Below, in pieces: positions 683-63,666 of a stretch of 64,000 nucleotides of DNA (the first letter of the stretch is position 1; each line of letters begins with the position of its first letter). The notes under the pieces are model-generated. The model was not told where the DNA came from. It ran no database searches and saw only the letters and a program-made list of their open reading frames with translations. The position numbers and the translations under genes were made by a program. Origin of the DNA: Hormiphora californensis (lineage: Eukaryota > Animalia > Ctenophora); contig CM035361.1 in the NCBI GenBank assembly GCA_020137815.1, positions 2,666,001-2,730,000 on the forward strand, in the 5' to 3' direction.

Positions 683-3325
683 ATGGAGGGCGGTCCTTCC
701 TCTCCCTTGCAGCTAATTAACTTGATACACAGCAACCAACTTGTCCCAGGTATGATTTGAAATTCAGGATAGAAATTTTCCTTTAGAGTTACACTGTTAA
801 ATATATTAAACACTATAATATAACTCTCTTCTACTCACAGGCAATCCGGTTTTAAATCACGTGTTTTTAACGTGGGTTGATACCACTCTTCGACAGTGTT
901 ACTCTACCCAACGGAACCTTGAAGAGTGCAGGCGACTCATCTTACTGGTGAGTTAAAATGGGAAACATTTGCTAGACCCTCAAATGGGTTTGAACAAAAC
1001 AATGAAACAGCTTGCACTCTTGACTCGCCCCGATCTCTTTGGGTACCGCGGTGTCCCCTCTTTCCAGTACATTTTGAATCAGGAACCGACCGAAACAAGT
1101 AAACAACCAATCAGAACTCGTTATTTAGGTCACGTGACTGGTTATCAGCCAATCAGGGACCACTATTTCCTGATTCGGTCGGTTCCTGCTTTGAATTTTG
1201 TACGGGGGTTTACCAGATACTTAACACATCACCCTGACATTAAAGTTTGGAACCCTCTAACTAACAATTTTACTTTTCCTAGGTTTTTAAGACTCCTGGT
1301 TTCACTCCTCTCGAGCTTGCCAAGTTCCGTCACTGGAGGGATCTATTTGATAGTCTCTTCCCATATCTCCCCGCCTCCGATCAGGGATCTGCCGCTGAAT
1401 CCGGATATAGTTCGGGCGGTTCTGACAGGTCCGCAAAGTTATTTTAGAGCTTCTTCACTGTCTGCAAAAGGATATACTGTAGAACTTACCTTTAATGCTA
1501 TTAGAGATTAACATTCATTTAATATTCGGTGTATTATATTTCACTGCTCGACTAACCCCCTAATAGCTCTGCCCCTCTCTCCAGATCGTCCTCGTGTTCT
1601 CCGTCTCCGACACAAGACGGTATGTTCGTCTACAACCCCTCCACCGCCTTCCTCGTCCCATCCTTTCCACCCATGCCGATAGTACCGCCTCCCCCACCGC
1701 CCCCTCCTGCCCCCTCCAACCACCATCACCATCACGCGAGGCTGGTGAAAACTAGCAGTGAACCGGTCAACTACATGGGGACACGGTGTAAAGTGGCACC
1801 ACGGGAGCGGGCTATTGATGTTACCAATCATATCACAGGTAGGAGGCAGGAGCATTATAATGGGATCGCAGTATGTATTGCTCTCTGACGCAGCCATGCA
1901 CTAACGTCATTTGACAACTTAGTTTCAAAAATTTTTATTTATTTCAAGCGTATTTTTTCCCTGCCCGGGTGAATGCCGAAGGCATTCACCCGGATGCCTT
2001 TTTACTTTGTAAAAAGGCATAGCAGGGTTAGAATTCGAAAACGACATTTTGGTATACTAACTAATCGGTAGAGGGACATTTTTTGGTCACACTTTCGTTG
2101 CGAGGGCAACGGTGTTGTATGTTTATTTGTAGCAACTAGAGCCGCGCGCACAGTGACGAGCTACTCCTTCATCAAACACCTCATTGACACAGTTTGATGG
2201 ACGTGTGTGCGCGCGCTACTCAACAAAACATGAAATGCTCTGCCGCGCGTTTCGCGTGTTACATACACATTTTCATCAATTGCGAGTCGAGTGTGAGATG
2301 TTAGATAAGTAGTTAAGTTGGAATGTCAAAAGCTGGTTAGCAAGTGTCATGTGATTGGGAGTTAGCTAACTCTAAGCTATGTGAGAAGTATACTGACATG
2401 GACAGCTAGATCGTATGCATCTCACATTACATTATGACCAAGCCTTGATCCTGTTGGCAGTGACAATGTCACTGACATGTGAAACGGTAGGGCAGGGAAA
2501 CACAGCATTATGAATACATAATGCAATAATTCTTGTTTACTTTACAGGATTGTTAAGTTGGTTGAAAACCCTCCGACTCCACAAGTACTACTCCAACCTA
2601 TCTTCTCTGACATTCGATCGGATGATGAACCTGAATGATGGAGGTATGTATTTTGTGTTTGTTTGTTTGTTTGTTTGTTTGTTTGTTTGTTTTTTTTGTT
2701 TGTTTGTTTGTTTGTTTGTTTGTTTGTTTGTTTGTTTGTTTGTTTGTTTGTTTGTTTGTTTGTTTGTTTGTTTGTTTGTTTGTTTGTTTGTTTGTTTGTT
2801 TGTTTGTTTGTTGTTTGTTTGTTTGTTTGTTTGTTTGTTTGTTTGTTTGTTTGTTTGTTTGTTTGTTTGTTTGTTTGTTTGTTTGTTTGTTTGTTTGTTT
2901 GTTTGTTTGCTTGTTTGTTTGTTTGTTTGTTTGTTTGTTTGTTAACCCAACCCTATCTTTTTAGATTTGTGTGAAATAACGGATGGAGCCAGGAAAAAGA
3001 TCCTGTTGAATCTTCTAAAGCTCAACGAGAGAATACCTGTCCTTCAAAACATGACATCGGTATGTCAATAGCAATTAAATAATCCTTCCAGTTAACCTAA
3101 TTGCGCGGGAAGCCCTGATTTTGTTTGAGCTCCCAACCCATATTTTGATCTGCGAACCCATATTTTGGGCTCCATTTTTACATCCAATTCCACCTGCATC
3201 TGGCGTCCGACTGTTTGTCTACACCCCTCCTCTTTTTAACCGTGTGCGGGTCTTGTTCGTTACGACTCATTAACAATGCGGTTGCATGTCCGGTATTAGG
3301 TCATGTGCCTTACCATCCGCCTCTC

Positions 3326-3394
<69 letters not shown>

Positions 3395-5095
3395 GTTTTT
3401 CACTGTCATATTCCCATGTCATCTCTCTTTCTTCATGCTTATAACCGCACCATCAATGCAGCGGGCCGCTTTCAGCCAGTTGCATACCAGTTATACCCAA
3501 TCTTTCTAACTCGACCTTATCAAACCCCCCCCCCCCCCCCCCCAATGGAGTGTCACAAACTGCAATCGACAAACTGGGAATCCAATCAAATAATTAATTG
3601 TGTTCATCCCATCGTTATGATTAAAATAGCAATGCATCTACCGCCCCCCAAGAAACCATCCCCTAGAAATTCCCTAATACTAATAATACATCATCCCTCT
3701 CCCCTAGGAACTCTCAAAGCCAGGCCGATTCAGTGGCTGTGTATCTGAGCTCCATAACCTGTTGATGAAGACGCCTTTCCCTCTACCACCCTCATCTCCT
3801 CTGGCCAGGAATCCTATCAAGGAATATGATGCACCAGTCGATAATATCATTGTTCAGTTTACTGGAGTTCTGGAATCAGGTGGGTTACAGATATATCTGA
3901 GTCAGGAACCGACCGAATCAGGAAATACTGGTCCCTGATTGGCTGATAACCAGTCACGTGAGCTAAATAACGAGTTCTGATTGGTTGTTTACATGTTTCG
4001 GTCGGTTCCTGATCTAAGTAGGGGTAGGACTTTTGGGTGGGTGGTAAATGGAATTCGGTAAAGAATACTGATTTACCATCCCGGTACCAAATCCTTTTCC
4101 ACTTTTCTCAGACTAGTTGATCGATAACAACCACTTTTCTCTATATAAATAACAACCACCTTTCTCTTCCTATCCATAACAACCACTTTTCTCTATATAA
4201 ATAACAACCACCTTTCTCTTCCTATCCATAACAACCACTTTTCTTATCCATAACAACTACTCTCCCTATTCATAACAACCACTCTCCCTATCCATAACCA
4301 CTTTTCTCTTCCTAGCGTACAACATAATCCTGGCAAACAGTATTGAGGAGGAGGCCCAGCGACAATTCTTCAGGCTTCTTGAAGATGCTGCCCAACATGC
4401 GGTTAGTGATGTATTATTAGAACCAGGAACCGACCGAATCAGGAAATACTGGTCCCTGATTGGCTGATAATCAGTCACGTGACCTAAATAACGAGTTCTG
4501 ATTGGTTGTTTACTTGTTTCGGTCGGTTCCTGATTAGGACCAGGGATATGATCTTTAATCGGAGTGTGGGTGGGAAAGAAAATAGATAGAGAAAGAATGA
4601 TAGTGAGAGGGAGATCTAGAGGGAGGGAAAGGAGATAGAGAGAGACTTAAGATAAAGATAGCCGTGGGAGGGAAGATGAGCTTTCCCACCGTTATCCTAT
4701 CTCCTCAGCTCGGGTAGGTAGATCTACACTTATTGATAGTAAGGTGGGAGAGAGAGCTTAGAGAGAGAGAGAGAGATGTAATATATAGCTATTTCTCGAT
4801 CTGGGTGTAGACTCTCCCTTTCCCCGAATCACAATGACTATTCACACTCTCTCTCCCTCTCTCCTCTCCCTCTCCAAGCCCACTGGATCTTATTGTATTG
4901 AGTGTATTAAACCCTATATACACTGTTATACTGCCGGTATAGCTCTCTATCTCCCTAATCCCCAGGGCCCAGTCTTCAATTTCAATGTTGAACAGCTTTC
5001 GGTGGTTCAAGGAAAATATTATTATTCAAGCACCACTTTGGGGAGGGACACTATAATGTACTTCAATGTACACACACTCTCCAGTCTCTCTCTCA

Positions 5096-7722: not shown

Positions 7723-9063
7723 CACGGCGTGCCTGGTGAAATTTTAACACGACCTAGCATGCAACGGGAAACCACCACTTGTACGTGGTAGCTGAGGGTC
7801 TACAGAATGGCGCTACGGTGCGGGAAAAAAAAGTCCATGCCCTAAATTCGTTTTTTTTACTTTTATTTGATTTGGGTCAAAATTGGCTATATTAAACGTG
7901 GTCCCGAAAAATCCATAATGACTTAGCACACGAAATATGTCACCCCTACCTATTTTTGCATGTAGAATCGATTGCCGTTGAAGTCGAATCTCTAAAATGA
8001 CTGTAAAATGGTCAAAAGTTGATTTTTTACCATTTTTTGGAGGTTTTTGGCCCCTAAACCATTGAAAACGTTGAGATAGGAATTTGAAACTAGTGCCAAT
8101 CGTTAAAATGGTCATTTTTCTACCAAGAACCAAGTTTTCGTGTATATCCGATTTATGGTTAGATTTGGGCAAATTGTTGAAATCTGCCAACTAGGAGAAC
8201 CGTAACTTGATTTTCTTGTTTTTTGGATTTTGGCATTTTTGACAAACTTCTGATTGAAATGGTCAATCGGGACCATGCTTAAGTTGTTTATGGGACAATT
8301 TTCGACTAAAATCCAAGATTTCATACCAATCCAATAACAGATCGTTGATTTATAGAAAATTTAAGTAGGCAAAACGGTCAAAATAAGCAAGAAAAGTTGT
8401 CATTTTGACCGTTTTGCCTACTTAATTTTTCTATAAATCAACGATCTGTTATTGGATTGGTATGAAATCTTGGATTTTAGTCGAAAATTGTCCCATAAAC
8501 AACTTAAGCATGGTCCCGATTGACCATTTCAATCAGAAGTTTGTCAAAAATGCCAAAATCCAAAAAACAAGAAAATCAAGTTACGGTTCTCCTAGTTGGC
8601 AGATTTCAACAATTTGCCCAAATCTAACCATAAATCGGATATACACGAAAACTTGGTTCTTGGTAGAAAAATGACCATTTTAACGATTGGCACTAGTTTC
8701 AAATTCCTATCTCAACGTTTTCAATGGTTTAGGGGCCAAAGACCTCCAAAAAATGGTAAAAAATCAACTTTTGACCATTTTACAGTCATTTTAGAGATTC
8801 GACTTCAACGGCAATCGATTCTACGTGCAAAAATAGGTAGGGGTGACATATTTCGTGTGCTAAGTCATTATGGATTTTTCGGGACCACGTTTAATATAGC
8901 CAATTTTGACCCAAATCAAATAAAAGTAAAAAAAACGAATTTAGGGCATGGACTTTTTTTTCCCGCACCGTAGCGCCATTCTGTAGACCCTCAGCTACCA
9001 CGTACAAGTGGTGGTTTCCCGTTGCATGCTAGGTCGTGTTAAAATTTCACCAGGCACGCCGTG
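7723..9063. mobile_element. 1341-bp foldback non-autonomous DNA transposon, Chapaev (CMC)-like
   Basis: Two ~660-bp near-identical inverted arms centred at 8393 with a ~18-nt spacer; termini CACGGCGTG...CACGCCGTG; 4-bp TSD ACCA (7719-7722, 9064-9067). CAC...GTG termini with a 4-bp TSD match Chapaev. Confidence 0.85.
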
Positions 9064-11132: not shown

Positions 11133-11513
11133 ACACATATTGTAATTGTCCTACTGCAACATATGATCCGAGCCAATATATATCCACATTCAAAGCACCT
11201 TTATAATTCCAAAAAACATGAAGGGTATTCGTTAATTAGGGCAGAGAGAGTGAATTGATTTGATAATAATAGGTTGAATTATAATATTATATGAGCTAAT
11301 ATAAATCTAGTTGGGATACAGATTTAATCTCAATAATAACACAATATCATTTCCCTGCAAAAAAACAGCTTGTTTTATTTGTTCTGTACTGCAGATTTGG
11401 TCGATCCGATCTGGGAATTATAACGGGGTATGGCGACGATAGTCCTGTTTTGGTAAAGCTGTTTTAGTTGAGCCAGTCCAAGTGGGCTGGGGGCACCGTC
11501 CGTGGTGGATGAA

Positions 11514-11609
11514 GGTGGGTTGCAGCTGGTAGCTGCTGTGTTCCTCACGTTTTCCGGAGTTGTATCAGACAAACGTGAGGAACACAGCAGCTACCAGCTG
11601 TAACCCACC
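11514..11609. repeat. 39-bp-stem inverted repeat (hairpin)
   Basis: 11514-11552 pairs with 11571-11609, one G:U, 18-nt loop. Confidence 0.9.
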
Positions 11610-12183
11610 CAAAGCTGTCTTACCACGCGAAGGAAAGATATCATCTGGGAATCAGAACTTTTTTCCATCCTGCATGTTGTATCATCATGAGGCTTCAATT
11701 CCGACCCTGCTTTTTACTGTCTCAGGCAGTGTCTGGCGGACCTGATCGGAGCAAAGTGCACACTGCACACCGTCTGTCAGGCCAATGCTCTGACCACAGT
11801 TCTCGTGCGCTCCGAAACGAGAATGGGTCAGGCCAATGCTCTGACAGCACACCGTCGAATATAAAAACGAGGTCTGCGATATGCTATTCATGTTGGTGGC
11901 ATGATAGACATCTGGCGCGACCGAGATATACACGGCCGCTTGTAGTGGGAATACGGTAATGGAAAACGGAGAAACTGTATGAAGACGCGCAACCGTGGCC
12001 AATCGGCGCGTTAGTACGTGCTGACAAAAAGTACTTTTAACAGATTGTTGACAAAAGCCCTTGCGCGTTACGCAAATTCCGCGCAGATTACTGTATTTTG
12101 CGTTACCGTATTTTGACTGCAAGCAGCACTGTGAGCTGTGTGCGGAGGTCAAGCCATGTGTCTATGCCACCAACTATCCATGC

Positions 12184-14321: not shown

Positions 14322-15199
14322 GAGAGAGAGAGAAAGAGAGATTGTATATAATACTACCTGAAGGGTCGGTTTTTTTTTGATCCTTTTTTGGGTTTGTTTT
14401 GTGGGGGGGAGGAGCTCCCCTTTTTGGGCCTCCAATTTTTGCCCCGGTTACCCTCCCCCCCTCTCACAAAGGAGGAAAAGAAGTTAGTTTTTCTGTTTTT
14501 TTAAGCTTAACCCCAATAAGAATTTTATCCAGGATCAAATAATGTAATTTTTCATTTTTAATTAATTTGTTTTTTTTTTCTTTCTTTTTGATTTTTGGAG
14601 TCTAATGTTTCCCATCCCACTATAATAAAATCCCTATAGTCAACGTTTTTAATATGTTCTAACCTCTTTTTTTTTTTGGGTTTTTAGAAAAAACGAGTGG
14701 AAAGGGGGTGTTAAGTGATGTAGTATACCCTACCATTTTAAATTCTCCGTCGAGATCGTGTTTCAGAACAAAATTTTTTTATAATAGGGCGGATGAAAAA
14801 AAAAAATAAACAAAACCAAAGGGTTTAGCAAAATAATTAAGGGGAGAAGAGAGGGGGAAAAAGGGGGGTGGTAATACTTTTAATTCCCCCGCAGAAAATT
14901 ACGCACAATTATGACGAAAAGGGGGGGGGGGGGGGGTTGATGGGGGGAGGGGGGGCGGGGGTTAATCATGATGCCAGATGGACAATACACATGTACACAT
15001 TTTCTGCTATTTAACCGTCGCCCCATTATATGTATGCATATACTGCTTTGCTTCAACAAGTTGCCACATTTTCCATTAATCATGGGGCCCATCCCTTCCT
15101 CTGTAACAGCTGTTATAATGCAGCTTTACTTTGAACTTCGTACACATGCCAATAATTGATATTTGGTCGAAGGCCGGTAATTTTTCACAATCGCAATTA

Positions 15200-15294
15200 C
15201 AGTCGGACCCCGATTTACCGGGATCCTCGGGGGAAATGGCTAGCCATTTACTGGGCACAGCCATGGCTGAGCCCGGTAAATCGGGACCCGACTG
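15200..15294. mobile_element. pogo/Tc1-mariner-type MITE (CAGTCGGACCCCGATTTACCGGG TIR family)
   Basis: TIRs and TA TSD; further short or degenerate copies at ~25565-25679, 47998-48133, 48550-48622, 49829-49874 and from 61331. Confidence 0.85.
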
Positions 15295-15360
15295 TAAATA
15301 TGTAGTTACTTTACTTTTTAATGTCTCTTGAATCTTCTAAATCTCATAGAATGAGCTAGT

Positions 15361-16616
15361 TATATAGTACATAACTCCCTCCCGCGCGGGCATCTATTCA
15401 ATAGACGCACTGCAGAGCAGTGCGTCTATTGAGCTGTAATGCACGGGTCCCGAAGGGACCCGTGCGTTACAGCCCTGTAAATCCCGAGCGTCAGCGAGGG
15501 GTTTACAGGTATATCTGCACGTAAGGGAGGGAGTTGTGTTCTATAGACCCCGCTGGCGGGCACCTAGAAGCAAAACAAGCACAAATTAGGTGGTTGACAC
15601 ACAGAGAGCTCACACAAAACGGGTCAAACAGTTAGAAATGAAGCTACAGAGTGCCTCTCTACATTCCTACACACTCGTAACAATCGTTGTAACAGTTTCA
15701 AAGCGTGGAATGCAGAGAGAGATTACAGTTAATTGTGGGTCATGAGCAACAGTTGCAACAGACTGGCGGGCGCCAAATCTAGGCAGAGAGTGTTGTAGGT
15801 TGTACACACACTCCCTCTTGAGTTACCAAGTCATTTTATCGTGTTTCCAGTGATTCTTTGTGATCTTTACACAAATCTGTCAGAGGGCGTGCGTCTATCG
15901 AGACACAAACTCACGGCAGTGCACGGCCCAATAGACCAGTGCAAATTGTTTGAGCGCGCCGTGCGTCTATTTGAGCCGGCGGGGTCTATATAGTACATAA
16001 CTCCCTCCCGCGCGGGCATCTAATCAATAGACGCACTGCAGAGCAGTGCGTCTATTGAGCTGTAATGCACGGGTCCCGAAGGGACCGTGCATTACAGCCC
16101 TGTAAATCCCGAGCGTCAGCGAGGGGTTTACAGGTATATCTGCACGCAAGGGAGGGAGTTATGTTCTATAGACCCCGCTGGCGGGCACCTAGAAGCAAAA
16201 CAAGCACAAATTAGGTGGTTGACACACAGAGAGCTCACACAAAACGGGTCAAACAGTTGGAAATGAAGCTACAGAGTGCCTCTCTACATTCCTACACACT
16301 CGTAACAATCGTCATAACAGTTTCAAAGGGTGGAATGCAGAGAGAGATTACAGTTAATTGTGGGTCATGAGCAACAGTTGCAACAGACTGGCGGGCGCCA
16401 AATCTAGACAGAGAGCGTTGTAGGTTGTACACACACTCCCTCTTGTGTTACCAAGTCATTTTATCGTGTTTCCAGTGATTCTTTGTGATCTTTACACAAA
16501 TCTGTCAGAGGGCGTGCGTCTATCAAGACACAAACTCACGGCAGTGCACGGCCCAATAGACCAGTGCAAATTGTTTGAGCGCGCCGTGCGTCTATTTGAG
16601 CCAGCGGGGTCTATAT
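15361..16616 (+). mobile_element. Head-to-tail dimer of a ~626-bp non-coding element with A-A'-B-B' inverted-repeat layout (family 1)
   Basis: Two near-identical units joined at TATATA (15987-15992); internal hairpins such as GCACGGGTCC-CGAAG-GGACCCGTGC; flanked only by TATA. Confidence 0.85.
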
Positions 16617-16790
16617 ATATATAATAGGTATGGTATGTTGTATATAATATAATTTACTCCTAGTTTTGTAGCTCTGTGCTACGAGTGAAAAGTCACAAAG
16701 AGATTGGGGGTAAAGTGAAACACTTTGTGCGAAACACTTTGTGCGAGGTAAAATCGGAGCGGAATCTACAATTTCGCTCTTGATTATATT

Positions 16791-17045
16791 CTTTTGGTAC
16801 GTCAGGGTTCCCACGGGAAGGTCTAACTTGATATTCATACCCCCACCCTAACCAAAAACTTGAACCACACCTTTCAAGCTTTGAATTCTCGAGATGATTC
16901 TAGAAGCATTTCTATATAATATAGAAATGCTTCTAGAATCATCTCGAGAATTCAAAGCTTGAAAGGTGTGGTTCAAGGTTTTGGTTAGGGTGGGGTTATG
17001 AATATCAAGTTAGACCTTCCCGTGGGAACCCTGACGTACCAAAAG
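16791..17045. repeat. ~255-bp near-perfect palindrome (foldback MITE)
   Basis: CTTTTGGTACGTCAGGGTTCCC...GGGAACCCTGACGTACCAAAAG, centre ~16918. Confidence 0.9.
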
Positions 17046-17360
17046 ACAGGTTGTGGACAGGTTGAGGACAGGTTGAGGACACATTGAGGACACATTGAGG
17101 ACACATTGAGGACACATTGAGGAACGGTTGCACATCAATCGTGGACACATTGAGGACACATTGAGGACAGGTTGAGGACACATTGTGGACACATTGAGGA
17201 CAGCCTGAGGACACATTGACCTGTCCTCAACCTGTCCACAACCTGTCCACAATGTGTCCTCAACCTGTCCTCAACCTGTCCACAACCTGTCCTCAATGTG
17301 TCCACAATGTGCCCGTAATGTGTCCTCAAACGTTCCGTAGGCAGTATGTCATACTACCCC
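17045..17360. repeat. 11-bp minisatellite (GAGGACACATT/GAGGACAGGTT) that switches orientation at ~17217
   Basis: Direct reading; ends in GTATGTCATACTACCC, similar to the insertion at 51817-51937. Confidence 0.8.
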
Positions 17361-17788
17361 GATTTTACTCCGATATAGTATATTGTTTGAATTTTTAAAT
17401 TTACATATTAAGCGCATCAGTTCAAACTACAGGTGACATTTAAAGAAATACACGGTAATTCAGTACTGAATTCAAAACATATCTGAAACGAAAACGGCTA
17501 AAATCTATGTTGATAAAGGAGCAAAGTTAATTTGGAAGAGCAAAGTTTTTTCAAAGATAACGAGCTGATGATATCAATTAATTTTATTTGAAACGATTGT
17601 TTTGAAAAACATGCTTTTCTCTTTGTGAACTGAAGTTCATGTATCAACTGCTTTAAGTAGTTTTCATTCCTGATTGGCTCCGGGAGTGCGGGAGTGATCG
17701 CAATGTAAAGTATAGTCCGTAATCTGCTATCTTGGTAAAGCCCATCATTAGCAAATATTAAAATGAACACGATATCCTTATTATAATA

Positions 17789-20457: not shown

Positions 20458-20698
20458 ACGGGGGATTACGGGGGCTCGAATAGATTGCCCGTATAGATCG
20501 CCCGTACCAGTCGCCCGTACATTTGCTTTGCGCATTACGTTTCATCGCACTTTCTCCACAAATAAGGTACATGCGCGTTACGCGCATGTGTTTTGTTGTG
20601 ATGAAAGTGTGGTGAAACGTAATGCGCAAAGCAAATGTACGGGCGACTGGTACGGGCGACTGGTACGGGCGTCTCATCCGGGCCCCCGTAATCCGCTG
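20458..20698. mobile_element. Palindromic MITE-like element
   Basis: GGATTACGGGG...CCCCGTAATCC termini; arms CGCCCGTACATTTGCTTTGCGCATTACGTTTCA and its reverse complement. Confidence 0.7.
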
Positions 20699-23076: not shown

Positions 23077-23176
23077 NNNNNNNNNNNNNNNNNNNNNNNN
23101 NNNNNNNNNNNNNNNNNNNNNNNNNNNNNNNNNNNNNNNNNNNNNNNNNNNNNNNNNNNNNNNNNNNNNNNNNNNN
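23077..23176. other. Assembly gap (100 N)
   Basis: Run of N. Confidence 1.
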
Positions 23177-26100
23177 CCAAAAAAAGCTGCTTTCCGGGGA
23201 TAACCAGAAAAAATGAAGATGCTTGGGAAATGAACAAGCTTAATATTCGGAGAAATCCTTTTTCTCCAAAAATTACCAACAAAATTCCCCTCCAAGTATG
23301 ACTTTAAAACTGCAATAAAATCACAGACTCTAAAGTATTTTCAACTTTAAAACCGTGCCTGGAAACCAAAGAATCTTCAAACGGTGCAAAAAACGATTGG
23401 GCCAAGAACGGTTTTTTGCAAAGTAAAGGGAGATTTTGGACACGTAAAATCTGCGGGTCTCAAGCCCCTTTTCTATTTTTCTATTCTTCCCAAGATGGTG
23501 GGAGGGCTATTGGGTTACCCATGGCCCCTTTTAAAAACTCTATTTTTCCGCGGGCTATTTAAAAAGGGCAGAAACGTTTTAAAGAATTTTTGAACAGTGA
23601 GGTGTAAAACGTGAAAATTTTTGAAAAGGCTGCCCTGCAGGATAAAAAGGCCCCGATACAAATTTTTATTTCTTTCTCTCTCTCCCCCTCTCTCCTCTTT
23701 TTTTCCCCCCAAAACCCCCTTTTATCCCCCCCCCCCATTTTTTTTGTGCCTCCCTTTTTCATCCCCCCCCCTCTATCGGTTTAAAAACTTTTCCCCATTG
23801 ATGCTGTTTAACAAATTTTCCCTTGAGCACTAAAAAAAAGCCCCGTTTTTTTTTAAAAAAATAAAGATGGGGTTTTTGCCCTTTTTCGAAACTAAACCGA
23901 TTTATCCATTGAGCAATTTTTAATGATGGGATCCTCAGGCATGTTCAAACAATATATAACCATTAAAGGCTCCAAAACAAGGGTTTTAAATGGGAGGGTT
24001 TTTTTTTATAGGGAAAATTTTGGTACCGGGAAAGGGGTTTTTGGTTTTCCATGGGGAAGGCTTGGTACCAGGAGGGGGGTTTTTGGTTCCATGGGAGGGC
24101 TTTGGACCATAACTTTTACCCAGGAAAGGGTTTTGGTTCAGGGGAAGGGTTTTTTTTTTCCTTGGGAGGGGGGTTTTTGGTATCCATGGAGAGGCTTTTT
24201 GGTTCCAGGGGAGAGGGTTTGACCCAGGGGGGGGGTTTTGGTACCCCCTGGAGAGGGCTTTGGTATCCATGGAGAGGGCTTTGGTATCCATGGAGAGGGC
24301 TTTGGTATCCATGGAGAGGGCTTTGGTATCCATGGAGAGGGCTTTGGTATCCATGGAGAGGGCTTTGGTATCCATGGAGAGGGCTTTGGTATCCATGGAG
24401 AGGGTTTTGGACCATGGAAGGGCTTTTTTTTTTTGGGGGGGGTTTTTTTTTTCCCCAAACTTTTGGAAATCCAGAAGGGTTTTTTGGTATCCCATGGAGG
24501 GCTTTGGATCCAGAGAGGGTTGGGATCCATTAAAGGGGGTTTTTTTGGGAAAGGAAGGGTTTGGTATCCTTAGAGGGGTTTTGGTACCATGGAGGGGGCC
24601 CCTTTTTTGGGACCCATGGGAGGGCTTTGGTATCCACGGAGAGGGAGTTGTTGGTATCTCAATTTAGAGCTAGAAAGGGGGTGGGGCACGTTGTATACAC
24701 CATAAGTTGAGTCAGTCATCACGCCTTGTAGGGGGCCCCTGACCCAGAGAATTCTCCACACAATACAACCCCACACACACCCCTTTCTTTCTTTTTTTTA
24801 TCCCCTCCACTTTACTGAAAAGCTTTCTTCGTTCCCCTCCCCTTTCGTCTTTATCCCCCTTTCTCTCTCTCCTTCTCTCTCTCTCTCTTCCCTCCGCCCT
24901 TTCTCTCACTTTCCTCTACCGAAAAACCCCTTCTACTATTTTTTTCGATCCCCTCTTTCCCCTTCTTCCTTTCTTTACATCTCATATTCTCCAACTAATT
25001 TTAAAACCACCGTCTAAAAATTTTTTAGTCAGCTTTTATATATTGAATATATGCGATGATGCCTCATGCTGATCCCTAATAAAATTTCCCTTTCGGCAAA
25101 TTTGGGAAATTTGGACCCTATAATTTTAGTGAAAAATTCAAAAAAAATGACAAAATTACCCACCACGCAAAATAATTGGTAGGCCACGGGAAAAAATTTG
25201 TCAGAGCATTGGTCTTTCCCTATATTCTCATTTCTTTCAAAATAAGGTCTGACTTTGCGAGAACGGTGGCAGAGTTTTGGCCTGACGGGGAAAACGGAGT
25301 GCCATGAGTGAAAGACTAGCCAGTTTAGCCTGTCTGAATGGTCTGTTTTTTTTCTTCTTGATTTCTGCCAAGGTTTCTCAGTATATTATTTTGAATGTTT
25401 CCTGCTGTTATTAGCCTGTAAACGGACAAAGTTCATCAGTCGTTCAGCCGGTTGCAACCGTCATATTTTACCAAAATACCCCCCTTCCGTTTAATTTGAT
25501 TGTCTGATTATTTGGTGTTATTGGTGTACACTCCTTTGTGACAACCTATATTATTTACCTAATACAGTCGGACCCTAGGATTTAACGGCAGGATAATCTT
25601 AAAAAATATAATATAAACATTTGATCCCTTTTTTAAGTTAAATTTTTAACAAAAAAAAAATTCCTTGGGGGCCCGACTGTTACCTATACTGGAAAAATAT
25701 TGCACAAAAAAGTACCTTTTTTTCTTAAATTTCCTTTTGGGGTTTTTTTTTTAAAATTATTCCCCCCTAATCCGAAGGGGGGGTTTTTAACAAACCCCCG
25801 GGCCCCCTTTTGTGCGGCGGTTTGAGGGAAAAATTTCAATTCTTGATTTGTTTCTCGTCCAAAATCCATAAATCGGGGTCTGACTGCATACCTTTTATTT
25901 ATTATTTAATTGTTTTGTCTGGGGCCGGGAAAAAGGGTCGAGCAAGAGTCAAGACAAACCTTTTTTTAGTATGAAATTTTGATTATTTTTTTGACTATCC
26001 CACTCCCTTATGCAGAGTTCCCCTTTTTAAAAAATTATAAGATCTCTTTTCCAACTATGCGCGCATTTTTGGTCAGCCTTTTTTAAACACTACCGAATTT

Positions 26101-26191
26101 TCCATTTGTCGTTTTTTTTTTTTTTTTTTTTTTGCCCCGTACCCCCCCCCCCCCCCCTCTTTTTAAAAGGGGGGGGGGGGGGGGGGGGGAA

Positions 26192-26223
<32 letters not shown>

Positions 26224-27250
26224 GGGGGGGTTTTTTTAAAAAAAAACCCCCCCGGGAAAAATTTTTTTTTTTTTCCCTTTTTTATTTGAAGGGAAAAGAG
26301 ATTTTTAAAAAGCTGTACGGTGATTTTGCGGGAGGGGAATTGAAAAATTTTTGAAACAAATTTTTTGTGGATTAAAATAATGTCCAAAATTTTAAGGGGG
26401 TTTTTACTTAAAAAAAACCCTCTTTCCCTTTTTTCTCACTTTTTTTTTATTTCTTTTTCATTTTTCGTCCGGTTTTTTCCATCCATTTTCTTTTCCAAAA
26501 CCCTTTCCCCAGTTCCCCCTCTCCTTCTAAAACTATAGGGGCTACCCCCACAAAAAACCCTCCGGCTTCTAATAAGCTAAGAAAAGGGCTTCTTAGAAAT
26601 TCGTTCTGAGGGGATATGTCTACTATTAGATCTATAACTGTCCAATTTAGGCGCACAAACACTTGGTCCCCTTCAAAATTCTAAAAAACGTACCGGTTTT
26701 ATTTTATGGGGGTCGTAAATTTTTGTAGTAAATTATTACACTCGTTTTGAAGAGGCTCATGCTCACAAAATGATCAAAAATCCCTCCCTTTGGCTCGATA
26801 AAAAGGGGTCCCCTTTAATGTAAATGTGGTAATAGGGGGGTAAAATGTCCATATATATATCTGTCCCCGGGTCATTTTTCCCATATAAAAATGGGAGTAA
26901 TTCGGAGCTAGCTCTAAGCTTGAAGACAATTTTGTCGGCCCAAAAAACGACAAATTTGTCTTCATAAATTATTATTGCGAGGACGTCTTGATCTCATTTA
27001 CTTTAGGAGGATCTGACAGGTTATTTTTTTTTTTTTTTTTTTTTTTTTTGGCCCCCCTTTTTTTTCCCCCTTTTTCCCCCCTTTCCTTTTTTTTTTCCTT
27101 TTTCTCTCTTTTTTTTTTCCCCCCTTTCTTTTTTTTTTCCCCCCTCTCTCTCCCCTCTCCCCTCTTTTCTCTCTCTCTCTTCTCCCCCCCCCCTCTCTCT
27201 CTTCTCCCCATCTTATGTGCCCCGGGTTTTTCAAATATTTTGTATGTGCG
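23177..27250. other. Low-quality, homopolymer-inflated sequence next to the gap
   Basis: Long adjacent A/C/G/T runs and corrupted copies of otherwise clean repeats; similar tracts at ~14340-14960 and ~59770-60010. Confidence 0.8.
24239..24420. repeat. 21-bp minisatellite GGTATCCATGGAGAGGGCTTT (degenerate copies ~24020-24660)
   Basis: About 7 clean tandem copies. Confidence 0.93.
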
Positions 27251-28701: not shown

Positions 28702-29374
28702 TATATAGTACATAACGTTCTGCACGCAGTGCAAGCGCGCCATATACGCTCTGCACTGCAGAGCGTATATGGAGGTGAAATGCACGACAGCGCAGCTGGA
28801 GTGCATTTCACACCTATATTGCACGAGTGAAACGAGTGCGATATAGGAGCGATTGCACATACCGTGCAGGACGTTATTGAGTATATATTCCGCGAGAAAA
28901 CACATGACAAGCAAAACAATCATAATTTTGGGTGATTACACACAGAGAGATGTGACAAAACAAGGCACAAACTAAGCAAAAACACACAAAAAGATACTAT
29001 GAGACACTACTACACCGGTTACACACAAGGGAGACAAGGTCTGATAGTTTGAAACAGTCAAAAGAAGAGAGAGATAAAGAGAGAGATGCGAGAGAGGGAG
29101 ATTGGAATTCTTGGAAATAGCAAACAACAAAACGTGACAAGGGGATAATTAGTGAGAGAAAGAGGGAGAGTGAGTGTAATTTGACAGACTTTGTGTCGTG
29201 TAGTACCTTGTCAGTCATATTCTGTGTGTTTGTGTGTGAATAAGGTGTAAAAACACTTTTCTCACTTATATCCCGCTACCTCTATATCTGCACGCTCCCG
29301 CGGAAGCACAGTGCATATTTCAGCGTGCAAATGGTCGCGCACAGCGGGAGTGATATGTGCACTCGCGGTATATA
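28702..29374 (+). mobile_element. ~675-bp non-coding element with A-A'-B-B' layout (family 2, copy 1)
   Basis: Starts TATATAGTACATAACGTTCTGCACG, ends CTCGCGGTATATA; homologous copy at 62988-63666. Confidence 0.85.
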
Positions 29375-29626
29375 TATATCCTAAGACACACAGCTCACAG
29401 CTCACGATTGCATAATGGCAATATCATGGGATATTATTATACAACTCTCACATGGATAGGAGCTGATAGAATGCCGTATATTGCGGTTCATCTTTAAAAT
29501 GATATTGTACCTTGCTTGGGTATACGTTGTCTTGCTTTCATGATGATGGGTGCGTGTCGAACCCAAACACATATATGATCATCACATCAACCCACCTGAT
29601 CTTTATAACCTCCCACATATATCAAC

Positions 29627-44100: not shown

Positions 44101-47100
44101 CTCAAATCTGATCGATTCAAGGAAATTTCGCTCGGATGGCGACATCTATGTAAGCAAAACGAAAAACTTATCCAGGGTTGGGGAGGCGGTTGGGGGCGGG
44201 TGGGGGCGGGTGGGGGACTCATAAAGACCACGTGAATTTAATTGATGTCCTTGGTATTAGGCTGTCCAGTATTGATTGTCGTTGGGCTTTTATGAGACAA
44301 TGGTTTGAGATAAAGCAAAATGGACTTCACCACCGTTTTTCTCACGCGATTTTAGATCGGAATATCATGCTTGGTATCGGTATGTGGCCGTTCTCGGTTC
44401 CCAGCAGGCTATTTTCTCTACCCCACTCCTGTTGCCGCTGCATTTGGAAAATCGCGATTTTCGAGTTTTAGTACTAAAGCTGCTGTACTTCTTAAAAATG
44501 TTACCGGAGTGATGTTTTTTTGCATCAAGCTTGTTCATTGGACAATTACCTACTGTTCAAGATGTAATAAAACATCCTATCTTTATTTTGTCACTGAGCA
44601 ATGGGCCTCCAAAAAGTTTTGGTAAAAATTAGAAATTTTCACTTCCGGGTCTCATCAGGATTGGCTTATAATAAAAAACTTTGCAGTAAAAAGTAGTTCT
44701 AAGTAAGTTCTAAGACGTAGTGAAGCCAATTATGTGATTGGTTGACTTTTGAAGTGACCAATTGACGTTTTTGAACATGTCCCCAAAACGGGCCAAACTT
44801 TTTCGCTTTTTCGTGTTACATTTACTGTTTCAGATGTTATTAGTGAACGCGTAAAGACCCAAATCGCATACATACCTCATCCTTAGACGATTTTCAATCG
44901 ATTGAGCACTATAACGGGAGCTAAAGAAACTGTACCAGTTTTCTTCCAGCAGCGTTTAAAAAACATTGGTAACCCCATGCAGCGGCAACAAGAGTGGCGT
45001 AGAGAAAATAGCCTGCTGGGAACCGAGAACGGCCACATACCGATACCAAGCATGATATTCCGATCTAAAATCGCGTGAGAAAAACGGTGGTGAAGTCCAT
45101 TTTGCTCTATCTCAAACCATTGTCTCATAAAAGCCCAACGACAATCAATACTGGACAGCCTAATATAACAGGAAACGAGGGGTTCAACACTGTGCCTCCT
45201 TGAAAAAAATCTCGAATTCTTCTCTATGATGGCGTAACATTCTTATTTAATTTTCAGCAAAGTCAGTTGATAGAGACGAATAGGCAGAATGTTAAAATGA
45301 CTATTATAGAGTTGTTCGAAACGGAACGGAATTACATCTCAAATCTTCTAACGATCATCGATGTAAGTGATAATCTCCCTTTCGGACTTTCGGTAATCCG
45401 TATAAGTTTTCTGATTTCCTTTAGTTTTACCAGAATTTCTACTGTTTTATTTGATTTGTTTGAGCTAATACTCATCACTGCCTACAGGTATTTGCCCGAC
45501 CTATAAATGATCTCGGGTTGTTATCTCGGAAAGTCCACGGAGCTCTATTTCCCTCGTATATCCTCCACTTGATACACCGTCACTCGATATTTCTGGGGAA
45601 GTTAGAGGAGAGGATCTATAACTGGCATTTTGTACAAAAAATAGGGGATCTGTTTGCTGGTAGGTTCATGATATTGTGTTTCCTTGTTTTTTTTGTTCTA
45701 GTTTTGGCCAAAACTAAATTTGGTGGGTAAAAACCTAGTTATCAACGGCATGTCACTCCGTTACAAAATTAATTCCACTATTTCAGTCTTCAAAGAAGAG
45801 AACAGAGATGGCCTATTCCGTGTTTACTTATCCTACATAACCCACTTTCCCCACATGTTCGACCGGCTTACAAAGGTATTTATTGTAATGCTTTGTTCAG
45901 TCCTGTCTCACCACGCCCACATAAATTATATTGTAGCATTTCTTTCACAAAATATATGGGGCACATGGTGAAAGAGGATCTCTCGAGGTGTTAACGTCAT
46001 GCTTTGTTTTGCGCACTTTGCATTTTATTTGCATTTTATTCGCATAGCGTACGTCATGCTTTGACTCTTATTTTTCGTGCGTGACCCAGCAATAATATAA
46101 TATAGATAACCCCACTGTGTGTCGGGATGAAATTTGATATACCAGCCTATTAGGCTGGTATATCGTTCAGTTATTCCACTGCTCGCGGAGCGAGCAGGGA
46201 ATAACTGCTGATATTCCCGCAGCCGAGATTGGAGATTGGAGATTTAGAGAAATGCTTTGTTTTGCTCATATATTGCATTTTATTTGCATTTTATTTGCAT
46301 AGCGTACGTCATGCTTTGATTCTTCTTTTTCGTGCGTGACCCAGCAATAATAATGTTCTAACCCACCTTTATATTTGTAAAAGAGGGCGGGGGCTAGGGA
46401 GTGAGGGTCGTGCGTGACCCAAACTCCAGAGCTATAAAAATAGAAAAGTGACCCCCCAACGTCACCAAGTGTAAATGCTGTTGCATTTTAATGTGATAGA
46501 TGCAAATAACGGTCGAGGGGCATAGAAAATTTACTTGACTCCCGTTGCTATAACGAGAACAAGAATAAATGCATTATGTTTCATAATGCTATGTTTCCCC
46601 GCCAATCTTTCATTTCTAACACGAAGGCGGGACAGACATTTCGGATCATTTATAAATCAAGCAAACAGTATAGAACAAATCCTTGTGTTTTAGTAGCACT
46701 AAATTGCGCGCCACATTGCGGAATTGTGTGGCACACAATTCCTGAAAACGTGTCAATGAAGTGGTTTATGAAGGAGCAGGTTGTTGTTGTGTGCGCGGCT
46801 CTAGTTGCTACATGTTCCCCCTCGCAACCTGAAACGGGACAAGAGAGCTGACTTGCTACACATAGTCACTATATCCGTTTAGATTTCTAAACCCCTATGC
46901 CTTTTTGCAAAAGGCATCCGGGTGAAGGCCTTCGGCCTTCACCCGGGCGGGGAAAAAATAAAAGCGATATGAGACTACCTACCCGAGTCTCAATATTCCC
47001 CCTTTTTATTTTACTAATTTCTTTCAGGCCATGGCTTCCAATGAGCGGTTTCGTCAGTACGTGCAGAAATGTCGGAAGGAAGAGAGAGCGTGTCAGCGGC

Positions 47101-47988
47101 TGTCCCTTCTCTCCTTCCTATACAACCCTATCCAGGTACTTGGTCTGTCTGTCTGTTTTTATGTTTACTTTTCTGATTTTTTTCTAGTTGTTTTTCTGAT
47201 TGTTTCTTTCAAAGAGAAAATCAAGTTTTCTTCTTTCTGTTTGTCTGTTTTTTTTTCCTGAATTTCCCCTGTTTATCTGTATAGTGTATGTCCCCGGGGA
47301 CTGCAGCCAGTATGTTAATTCACACAGGGGACTGGCCAGTATGTCAATTCACGTGTATTTCAGAGAGTTCCCAGGTATGTGTTGCTACTAAAAACCTACA
47401 TGAAGCACCTGGACCACAAGAATCCCGATAGAGTGTCTGTACAAAGTGCTGTGACCTCCCTAAATAGACTGTTATTCGAGGCTAACAAGTAAGTAGGACA
47501 AGATATATCGTGTTTTAAAAGCTCAGAATTTTAATATGTTTTGGGTCTTCTAGTTTTGACATCCTGATATCTTTTTTACCATGTCTTATCTGACTAGTAA
47601 TTAGTATCTCTTATTTTCTTTCTTATCTCTTATCTCTCTCTCTCTTATCTCCAGGTTGTGCAACTTCACAAAAGACGGTACGGGTGCAATAAAACTTCCC
47701 TTTACATCCCAAACCTCTTCCCCCTCAATACAAAACTCAACCTCCCTGGACTCCCCGTTTGAGGACGCCCGGAGCGGCAGCGGTGGGGGCATCTCCGCCT
47801 TCTCGGATGTCGATAGTATCTTTTCAAATGGATCATATAATGGTGGTGGAGGGGGCGGTAAAAAACAGATACAATCTAAGATTAGCACAGTTTTAAATGT
47901 GTTTACTTTTAGTAGGGTGTTGAAGAAAAAGAAACGGAAGCAGCAAATCCAACAGCAACAATCCACGGGGGTTTTAAATAATGGGTGA
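38164..47988 (+). CDS. Rho guanine-nucleotide exchange factor (Dbl homology domain) with a long low-complexity N-terminus and no PH domain seen
   Basis: In-phase exons: 38164-40009 (frameshift ~39140), 40643-40814, 41057-41188, 41327-41432, 42706-42845, 42987-43088, 43261-43453, 43648-43749, 44074-44149, 45258-45362, 45488-45659, 45787-45875, 47028-47135, 47364-47488, 47655-47988. DH CR1 IIELFETERNYISNLLTIIDVF; IGDLF; CR3 LSLLSFLYNPIQRVPRYVLLLKTYMKH. Linking the 38164-40009 exon is inferred from a phase-0 GAG|gtgtgt donor and a tttcag|TTG acceptor. Confidence 0.88.
41450..41558. mobile_element. 109-bp hAT-type MITE (copy 6)
   Basis: TIRs; perfect 8-bp TSD gtttcaac. Confidence 0.92.
41634..42463. 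mobile_element. Non-autonomous TIR element apparently nested in a Harbinger-like MITE (~41624-42612)
   Basis: AGGGTGTGCTATTT...AAATAGCACACCCT termini; outer GGGGGAAAACAG...CTGTTCCCCCC. Confidence 0.6.
44257..45163. mobile_element. 907-bp non-autonomous mariner-type element with ~185-bp inverted arms
   Basis: TA-TTAGGCTGTCCAGTATTG...CAATACTGGACAGCCTAA-TA; gives mirror-image ORFs. Confidence 0.88.
46558..46958 (-). mobile_element. Helentron-type non-autonomous element, reverse copy
   Basis: Hairpin CCGGGTGAAGGCC-TTC-GGCCTTCACCCGG, subterminal IR GGCGGGGAAA/TTTCCCCGCC, hairpin GCATTATG/CATAATGC; similar to 1953-2537. Confidence 0.7.
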
Positions 47989-48233
47989 TAATAATTACAG
48001 TCAAACCTCGATTTACCGGAACCTCGATTTACCGGAACCTCGATTTACCGGAACCTCGATTTACCGGAACCTCGATTTACCCGGAAAACTTCATTCTCCC
48101 AAGTGGGGTCAATGGTAAATCAAGGTTTGACTGTTGATTATACTGTTGATGCGGTGTTGTTGTGCAGTTTAGATTTGTTTTGTTCCATAATATGGTTGTA
48201 TGATATTTTCGAGTACATTTTTAGCAGTTTGAA

Positions 48234-48366
48234 GGAGGGAAAACAGTCGTGCCTGAATCTCAGGTTAAGGTCACGGCTATATTTATCCTTGAGATCTGAG
48301 ACCTTAGTTTTCAGGGACAAATAGCCGTGACCTGAACCTGAGATTCAGGCACGACTGTTTTGCTCC
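48234..48366. mobile_element. Palindromic PIF/Harbinger-like MITE (AAAACAGTCGTGCCTGAA..TCAGG family)
   Basis: Inverted arms; related copies at ~27700-27830, 32457-32620, 42470-42612 and from 50827; superfamily inferred from G-run termini only. Confidence 0.6.
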
Positions 48367-49311
48367 AATAATGATACTGCTAGAACTACTGACTAAAGCT
48401 GAGTGAGCGGCATTCATGATTTTGTTCAACAATTCCAGTTAACATAAATTACACCTGCAGTTATATCTAATTATATATTTTTTGCTTATTTTGTTTTGGT
48501 TATCGAGTTTTGAGTGTAAACTGTATAACTTATTGGTTTCGAGATATTCACAGTCGGACCCAGATATACCGGGCCAAAATATAACTCCCCGGAGCATCCC
48601 AGTAAATCATGGGCCCGACTGTATGTGTGTGTGTGTTCTGTTCTACATTTTGCAACCCTTTCTCAACTTCTTGCTGTACAAAAGAATCGGATTGCGTCGT
48701 AATGAAGTGTTTCAGGGAAATATCGATCTGAATAATTCACAAGTCACCGCCATCACGATCCAGCAGCACCAACCGATCTAACCAACAAACCAACCATCAC
48801 GAAACAGTGTCAAGCGACTCAAGCTTCATCAGGAAATCAAATGAATTTGTTTGAAGTCGTGTTGAAATTGTCACAGCTGTCTAACCTACGACAAGTGTTA
48901 TACCGTCGAATTTGCTTTACTTGCCCTTGGTTTTCATTTCTATTTCTGTTTCAAAGTGTAAAACGCTGAGTTAATTTTGTATTGTATTGGTTTTATCAGC
49001 AATTGCTGTTCCTATAGCTGCTTAAGATACAAAATGTCACATTGTCACACGTAAAAACAAGAATATATATCTTCAGAAAAATAGCATTCAAATATCCTGA
49101 GCAGTGGGAATTTCTCACTTCCCTACACTTCTAATTGATTCAGTTCAACCCTATACACTTTTAAAAACACGAGTAAGAACAATACAACTCATTCATACTC
49201 ATTCTGACATTCTGAGTTCAGTTTCACTCTGAAATTGAACTTAAAGCTTTGAACTCTAAAACTCTGAACTCTGGACTCTGAACTCTGAAACTCTAAAACT
49301 TTTGATTGTTT

Positions 49312-62987: not shown

Positions 62988-63666
62988 TATATAGTACATA
63001 ACGTTCTGCACGCAGTGCAAGCGCGCCATATACGCTCTGCACTGCAGAGCGTATATGGAGGTGAAATGCACGACAGCGCAGCTGGAGTGCATTTCACACC
63101 TATATTGCACGAGTGTAACGAGTGCGATATAGGAACGCTTGCACATGCCGTGCAGGACGTTATTGAGTATATATTCCGCGAGAAAGCACATGACAAGCAA
63201 AACAATCATAATTTTGGGTGATTACACACAGAGAGATGTGACAAAACAAGGTACAAACTAAGCAAAACTACACAAAAATACACTTCTACACCTGTTACAC
63301 ACAAGGGAACTCGTTCTGTTAGTTTTAATTAGTGAATAGAAGAGAGGGATAAAGAGAGAGATACGAGAGAGGGAGATTGGAATTCTTGGAAATAGTGAAC
63401 AACAAAACATGATAAGGGGATAATTAGTGAGAGAAAGAGGGAGAGTGAGTGTAATTTGACAGACTTTGTGTCGCTTGGCACTAACTGTGTCAGTCATATT
63501 CTGTGTGTTTGTGTGTGAATAAGGTGTAAAAACACTGAGGGGACACTGTTCTTACTTATATCCCGCTACCCCTATATCTGCACGCTCCCGCGGAAGCAGA
63601 GTGCATATTTCAGCGTGCAAATGGTCGCGCACAGCGGGAGTGATATGTGCACTCGCGGTATATATA
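62988..63666 (+). mobile_element. A-A'-B-B' element family 2, copy 2
   Basis: Homologous to 28702-29374 from TATATAGTACATAAC to CTCGCGGTATATA, with unrelated flanks. Confidence 0.85.

Follow-up and report, generated by a model that had tools for sequence, protein, structure and literature searches.

A dispersed family of short, gene-less elements with an internal site complementary to both ends and a predicted DNA fold kept across four subfamilies

Two adjoining elements and their parts

The window, i.e. the whole stretch of 64,000 nucleotides analysed in the current study, is rich in microsatellites and contains two adjoining units of a short element, copy a at 15363..15990 (628 bp) and copy b at 15989..16615 (627 bp), both on the + strand. 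Each begins and ends with TATA, and the two units, referred to as subfamily F1, mismatch in 14 of 628 alignment columns. Both have the same order: left arm A (15363-15383 in copy a and 15989-16009 in copy b, + strand), three hairpins, the internal site A'-TATA-B, an interior and right arm B' (15975-15990 and 16600-16615). A sequence-only reading of the window had proposed this A...A'-TATA-B...B' layout; it was present as proposed in both units. When 627-base stretches were drawn at random 3000 times from the window (skipping low-complexity draws), none had the full layout.

The internal site lies at 15525..15557 in copy a (TATA at 15542-15545) and 16150..16182 in copy b (TATA at 16167-16170), on the + strand. 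It is composed of arms A' (15525-15545 and 16150-16170) and B (15542-15557 and 16167-16182), and is inverse-complementary to both ends of the element, with mismatches. The pairing of A with A' is real, as had been claimed, but it is not the exact complement that was described, since a T.T mismatch lies two bases from TATA in both units.

The loop between A and A' contains three hairpins, which had not been part of the earlier reading. In copy a these are found on the + strand at 15398..15432 (hairpin 1, loop AGA, with the family motif GTGCGTCTAT on both strands), 15433..15473 (hairpin 2, with a c(GAA)g triloop) and 15474..15509 (hairpin 3, with tandem G.A pairs and a c(GTCA)g loop). The interior of copy a (15558..15880) is without ORF, and its counterpart in subfamily F3 is unrelated sequence. 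The right module (15881..15990, + strand, left edge approximate) carries the family motif at 15889 and 15961, followed by arm B'.

The two units meet head-to-tail in TATATA (15987..15992), where their terminal TATAs overlap by TA. A junction had been described at this position with the same length as the internal TATA; it exists, but it is one TA longer. At the right end of copy b (16612..16623) the TATA merges into a target TA tract, with six TA units in total.

The units were said to lack ORFs and terminal inverted repeats, and both points held. The longest ATG ORF was 35 or 49 aa in the F1 units, and no ORF exceeded 94 aa in eight family elements. In the six complete elements the left-versus-right inverted match covered only 12-19 bases, and the best scores (19-23) were within the shuffle range (maxima 21-33). 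A search with the pattern TATA-N4-ATAAC-N{130,160}-GTTRT-N4-TATA returned seven matches at four loci, and none in 100 shuffles.

Dispersal and copy abundance

Of 24 listed sequencing runs, 20 contained the examined stretch, whole or in part. Six runs (one organism, three samples, one of which is possibly the source) held 0.85-0.98 of its words and eight marine metagenome DNA runs 0.40-0.66, while the small shares in the other six runs were disregarded. RNA runs held at most 0.18. In run X3, word depth over 15290-15992 was 191 in the flank vs 46,554-376,948 in the bins of the element, which is a sign of many copies and not a measure of copy number. The ends at 15364 and 15990 are fixed, because contigs of run X7 start and stop there. 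Together with the differing flanks of other copies, the contig ends and the repeat depth support the earlier proposal of a non-autonomous, dispersed, many-copy element with fixed TATA ends. The presence of four copies in these 64 kb suggests that the family makes up a large share of the host's unclassified repeats. One 276-base contig of X3 tracks the left flank to 15366 and then departs from the reference, a hint in the reads of an empty allele.

In principle, the two F1 units could have arisen from a duplication in the assembly, or from a tandem repeat at this locus whose self-complementarity is due to chance. The window contains a 100-base N gap (23077-23176) and long G, A, T and C runs resembling sequencing errors (26040-26300), and no listed contig piece spans the dimer junction, which lies at the edge of the stretch examined. 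However, of the 14 columns in which the units differ, 10 are recorded as variants in runs X2 and X3. As these differences segregate in other samples, the units are two distinct family members. Relatives of the element have other flanks, and the layout was absent from the random draws, and either origin is hardly credible.

Inversion of the A-A' or B-B' segment in some copies had been named as a point to check. None was seen, a weak result in that 18 of 315 loose ends were inspected. A single opposite-strand joint was detected in run X1 at a depth of 4, and it was located away from the internal site.

Subfamilies

Beyond F1, three subfamilies were recognised. They comprise two further window copies and, on three contigs from metagenomes, four elements that are full or partial. 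The window copies, which also went beyond the earlier reading, form subfamily F2 and are located on the + strand at 28704..29376 (673 bp, with the F1 layout) and 62990..63666 (677 bp). They are 91% identical to each other and have different flanks. The left module of F2 is 64% identical to that of F1.

Subfamily F3 came from a pattern scan of metagenomes, in which three of ten matches were real (contigs L002, L007 and L009). The other seven were chance matches that had neither the fold nor an alignment to the family. F2 and F3 share 95% identity over the left 170 bases and 87% over the right 108 bases, and their interiors are 42% identical, which is background (39-43% in shuffles). Kept termini with a swapped interior are the usual build of non-autonomous derivatives. 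The conserved modules comprise 195 bp on the left and 110 bp on the right, on either side of this replaceable interior.

F4 (L007:1-580, - strand) lies head-to-head with an F3 copy over one TATATA, and the contig cuts off its right end. Its left module is 49-53% identical to those of the other subfamilies, where background is 46-51%, but it retains the end stem, the three hairpins and the internal site. With a covariance model trained without F4, this element was the top non-training stretch, scoring 58.6 bits on the expected strand vs 31.1 on the opposite strand; a plain long palindrome in the same search reached 50 bits, near the F4 score. Other hairpin-rich stretches ranked by the model (11, plus four regions) did not have the layout of ends and internal site.

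All four subfamilies have GTTRT-N4-TATA-N4-CCRC as the internal site and TATA-N4-ATAAC at the left end. The right end is GCGG-N4-TATA in F1 to F3, that of F4 being beyond the contig.

Conservation of the fold

Folding of F1 copy b gave a z score near -12 for both strands. Both sides had changed in 20 of the 72 consensus pairs (7 copies, about two lineages). In the anchored helices, both-side changes were found in 18 of 61 pairs between F1 and F2, 9 of 33 between F1 and F4 and 11 of 33 between F2 and F4, the covariation overall representing about three independent lineages. At the level of sequence pattern, the predicted fold is thus preserved through compensatory change while sequence identity drops to background. 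A long fold-back formed by the interior was rejected as a general feature (z of -0.2 in F1 and +1.4 in F2).

The loop of hairpin 2 is GAA in F1, GCA in F2, GTA in F3 and GAA in F4, closed by c...g in F1 to F3, and the loop of hairpin 3 is GTCA in F1 and a GAA or GTA triloop in F2 to F4. A hairpin combining tandem G.A pairs with a GNA or GNNA loop was present in all eight left modules, invariably on one strand. Elsewhere in the window this combination matched once, where 0.33 matches are expected per 64 kb. The stems contained five G.T and no A.C oppositions among 159 distinct pair states, which is a small count. Loops of the GNA/GNNA type are not known to be favoured in RNA. In DNA, according to the available part of PMC3201870, triloops of the GNA type have very high stability, and cGNNAg is among the tetraloops obtained by selection. 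The occurrence of DNA-type loops on the + strand alone leads to the prediction that the family fold is kept as DNA. The single-stranded intermediate put forward in the sequence-only reading is supported, and the loop types and strand bias would narrow it to DNA and to the + strand.

A cDNA, an HUH substrate and an extruded cruciform would each account equally well for the DNA-type loops. An HUH (Y1/Y2) transposon, the enzyme of which would bind the hairpins, cut the + strand at the splinted TATA ends and move a single-stranded circle, agrees with the presence of such loops on one strand and with the first 8 bases of F2 and F3, which are predicted to be unpaired, as a nick site requires. From what is accessible of PMC10288648, hairpins at the ends generally characterise elements mobilised by Rep, and the short terminal direct repeats described for Replitrons also occur in the present family. 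Replitrons are further defined by a CRESS-like Y1 Rep transposase, and no partner of this kind was found in the window or in the collections scanned. In the portions consulted, PMC2374699 and PMC10288648 describe DINE-1 elements and Replitrons that resemble the family in being gene-less and present in many copies, with conserved end blocks, replaceable interiors and compensated hairpins. Helitron and Helentron DINE-1 elements are, however, marked by 5' TC and 3' CTRR ends or by 13-bp subterminal inverted repeats, and by insertion without duplication between TT, or A and T, of the host (PMC2374699, available text). Neither type of end was observed here, and the first 30 element bases had no inverted partner in the right end. 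The flanks show no TT target as in DINE-1, being TA tracts, in which insertion at an A-T step is conceivable. Neither group, as characterised in those portions, has an internal site complementary to both ends or a three-hairpin lobe, and the Replitron hosts described there are plants, algae and protists. The head-to-head join also speaks against an HUH element, since it indicates no fixed orientation, a point weakened by the palindromic target. An HUH origin is therefore considered improbable.

Internal site and element ends

In every subfamily, fixed mismatches between the ends and the internal site lie beside TATA: one in F1, three on the A side and one on the B side in F2 and F3, and one in F4. 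The three A-side mismatches were found in all five F2/F3 copies. The left end is also more conserved among subfamilies than the internal site, the first 13 bases of arm A being identical across F1, F2 and F3 while their internal counterparts differ. The ends do not appear to be copied from the internal site, because templating would erase the fixed mismatches. Judged from these sequence comparisons, the internal site is more likely a splint than a template.

These data bear on the possibility of a non-autonomous DIRS1-like retroelement, in which - strand RNA would give a + strand cDNA that folds, the internal site would rebuild and join the ends, and a DIRS recombinase would insert the circle. 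The repeats are arranged as in the DIRS1 internal complementary region (ICR), with two complementary regions that overlap at the circular junction near one end (PMC3266345, in part), and DIRS-1 makes single-stranded cDNA and requires its ICR (PMC7192593, likewise in part). The polarity of the strand folded as DNA is that expected for such a cDNA. The likeness to DIRS1 as set out in those texts thus extends to an internal region near one end that is inverse-complementary to both, to two halves that overlap in a short junction motif, also present on either side of the element, and, for the family as reconstructed here, to a probable single-stranded DNA intermediate.

The definition of DIRS1-like elements comprises inverted terminal repeats (ITRs) of 66-316 bp, a trinucleotide junction (mostly NTT), gag, RT/RH, MT and YR. 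The present elements have no ITRs and no coding domains, and their junction motif is TATA (4 bp, not 3), with an extra TA at real junctions. The ICR described for DIRS is an exact complement of the ends; the present elements, by contrast, carry fixed mismatches and show higher conservation at the left end than at the internal site. A three-hairpin lobe with DNA-type loops takes the place of the right ITR, the interior is replaceable, and no Pol III B box was found in seven elements on either strand. The fixed mismatches in every subfamily and the missing ITRs run counter to the earlier proposal of an ICR that serves as a template in the DIRS sense, and a DIRS-type route is regarded as unlikely. 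The splint reading accommodates the mismatches.

Target sites and element junctions

TATA was present at both termini of all six complete elements. The flanks are TA tracts rather than T runs, left flanks ending in YA (5/5) and right flanks beginning with T (4/4). Six of the nine copies seen abut another copy. Three element-element junctions were available (F1 head-to-tail, F3 head-to-tail and F3/F4 head-to-head), two of them on short contigs from metagenomes, in which joins can result from collapsed repeats. In all three the terminal TATAs overlap by TA, and the junction has one TA more than the internal site. A 6-bp core, a 2-bp duplication and a shifted 4-bp core are all compatible with this extra TA.

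The dimer had been ascribed to a circular or rolling-circle intermediate. This is unlikely, as the units are distinct variants and a head-to-head join between subfamilies shares the TATATA spacing. Insertion at the ends of resident copies is the better reading of the end-to-end pairs, because the inter-subfamily join is impossible from rolling-circle copying of one template.

Tc1/mariner MITEs are recognised by terminal inverted repeats and a TA target-site duplication. The family could thus be a MITE-like element of a TA-duplicating DDE transposase, with a TA at both element ends and the hairpins acting as paired double-stranded binding sites. The flanking YA and T, the TATATA at all three junctions (as one shared duplicated TA predicts, with an equal fit to a 6-bp core) and a 9-10 bp motif, specific to the family, that recurs in both the hairpin stems and the right module are in line with this. 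Terminal inverted repeats are nevertheless absent, and double-stranded sites leave the one-strand GNA loops, the tandem G.A pairs, the G.T bias and the covarying end pairing unexplained, which makes a DDE element decidedly improbable.

Search for an enzyme or coding partner

No transposon domain was detected by Pfam in 113 open frames of the window (111 frames of at least 75 aa that passed a low-complexity filter, plus two added), which gave five weak hits overall. Pattern scans of viral, prokaryote and metagenome collections, which hold little animal DNA, yielded no autonomous or coding partner, and no circular form of the element came to light. Three scans of viral contigs gave 0, 0 and 0 matches. 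Scans of prokaryote genomes gave 0 and 3, the three being rejected with covariance-model scores of at most 20 bits, and five matches of 36 bases in phage records were due to chance.

Rfam returned 25 matches at E up to 5 over 14500-17500, none of which reached its gathering score; one match touches the element, at 16 bits vs a gathering score of 440. A hammerhead ribozyme core is the mark of Retrozymes and Penelope pLTRs. No CTGANGA was found in seven elements on either strand, and no ribozyme family matched 14500-17500, so that an identity with Retrozymes or Penelope pLTRs was rejected.

The literature consulted, as far as its text was available, held no description of the layout of the element, and the accessible parts of PMC5753468 and bioRxiv 2021.04.23.441226 contain nothing on it. 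The family may have a Repbase or Dfam entry, e.g. under CryptonV or as 'unclassified'.

Proposed mechanism and relation to known systems

In the proposed mechanism, a folded + strand of single-stranded DNA, with the internal site as a splint, would be joined to a target by a tyrosine recombinase supplied in trans, and no templating would be involved. The starting point (step 1) is the observed set of dispersed copies, with their fixed ends, conserved end modules and replaceable interior. In step 2 the fold, observed as a sequence pattern, is kept by compensatory change, with DNA-type loops on one strand. The + strand would then be freed as single-stranded DNA through replication, strand displacement or reverse transcription (step 3). 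In step 4 the internal site would splint the ends into a duplex, GYGG-N4-TATA-N4-ATAAC, that has mismatches beside the core and would sit between the three-hairpin lobe and the interior loop. The recombinase may take this folded duplex as its site and exchange strands with a TA-rich target (step 5), in analogy to integron integrase on folded attC and XerCD on phage CTX. The ends of resident copies would provide ready-made half-sites (step 6), giving frequent end-to-end pairs. The three hairpins have a putative role in loading the enzyme or priming the second strand. Taken jointly, steps 1 to 4, i.e. the dispersed copies, the kept fold, the freed + strand and the splint, are quite probable. The chain as a whole, including the recombinase, is a tentative proposal that falls a little short of an even chance.

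A tyrosine recombinase is favoured on indirect grounds, namely the Crypton-like direct repeats without terminal inverted repeats, the microsatellite targets of CryptonV, the DIRS-like order of repeats and a bacterial precedent. According to the available text of PMC3212892 and PMC13465315, Cryptons lack terminal inverted repeats and carry short direct repeats of 4-6 bp at either end; microsatellites are the targets of some CryptonV families (PMC8869645, in part). The family resembles Cryptons, as depicted in these three sources, in having neither terminal inverted nor long direct repeats and in its TATA end repeat of the 4-6 bp class (all six complete elements). Its TA-tract flanks recall the microsatellite targets of some Crypton families, and the circular intermediate proposed for that group would be a further likeness. 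Cryptons are also defined by direct repeats that stem from homology to the target and not from its duplication, and by a tyrosine recombinase that is encoded or provided in trans. An internal junction copy and a folded single strand do not figure in those descriptions, and the link to the recombinase is putative.

In bacteria, folded single-strand sites are substrates of tyrosine recombinases (PMC4792948, available portion). Like attC and the attP of CTX as portrayed there, the splinted site would exist only as a folded single strand, with structure over sequence and imperfect pairing near the crossover. These systems are, however, bacterial, and attC comprises one hairpin per cassette, whereas here one internal site pairs two distant ends; the comparison is an analogy only. 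The available portions of the literature examined contained no description of a eukaryotic tyrosine recombinase acting on folded single strands.

It is conceivable, although on balance doubtful, that the family represents an undescribed class of animal transposon, which moves as folded single-stranded DNA and in which a splint builds the recombination site from the element's own ends. Such a class, with the same doubt attached, would be a eukaryotic counterpart of attC and CTX integration, served by a recombinase or nuclease family linked to no element yet, and might stand to the DIRS ICR as a relative or a precursor that involves DNA only. If an enzyme does act on the folded single strand, this would be a transposition chemistry new to eukaryotes, with potential use in placing single-stranded DNA into TA tracts. 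Experimental knowledge of animal tyrosine-recombinase elements is poor, and what the DIRS ICR does once cDNA has been made is only partly known. The short elements found here isolate the cis signal, as four subfamilies share one fold at background identity, with the strand and the site consensus given, and host assemblies can be probed directly with the element termini for the enzyme still missing.

Other features of the window

Another repeat family occurs at 1951-2210 (+) and 46731-46960 (-), the copies being 71% alike over 263 columns. It consists of a T run followed by two adjacent hairpins, one of which is capped by c(GAA)g, and we take it to be a Helentron-like lead. Close to its second copy, weak RhoGEF domain matches below the curated cut-off were found in domain order at 45464-45727 and 46962-47258 (+), and are likely exons of a host gene. 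Within this RhoGEF-like region, two 101-base direct repeats (92% alike) at 45999-46352 surround a pair of hairpins, of which one ends in a c(GGA)g triloop.

A short repeat at 957-1511 (+) and 4266-4646 (-) has a translation that recurs in many spurious-looking gene models. It gave 254 matches, and among the 120 listed most carry EukProt 'sb/' names, presumably gene models of the ctenophore Pleurobrachia. The window is eukaryotic, and these matches make a comb jelly its probable host.

Several palindromic sequences were also observed. A perfect inverted repeat at 7723-9063, with 662-base arms and a 17-base spacer, is either very recent or an assembly product. Downstream of the F1 units, 16790-17046 forms a 98% palindrome with 128-base arms, followed directly at 17045-17336 by a foldback array, the 11-base units of which occur in either orientation. 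Long palindromic MITE-like repeats that do not have the internal-site layout are located at 20463-20694, 11501-11618, 48217-48375 and 52125-52471.
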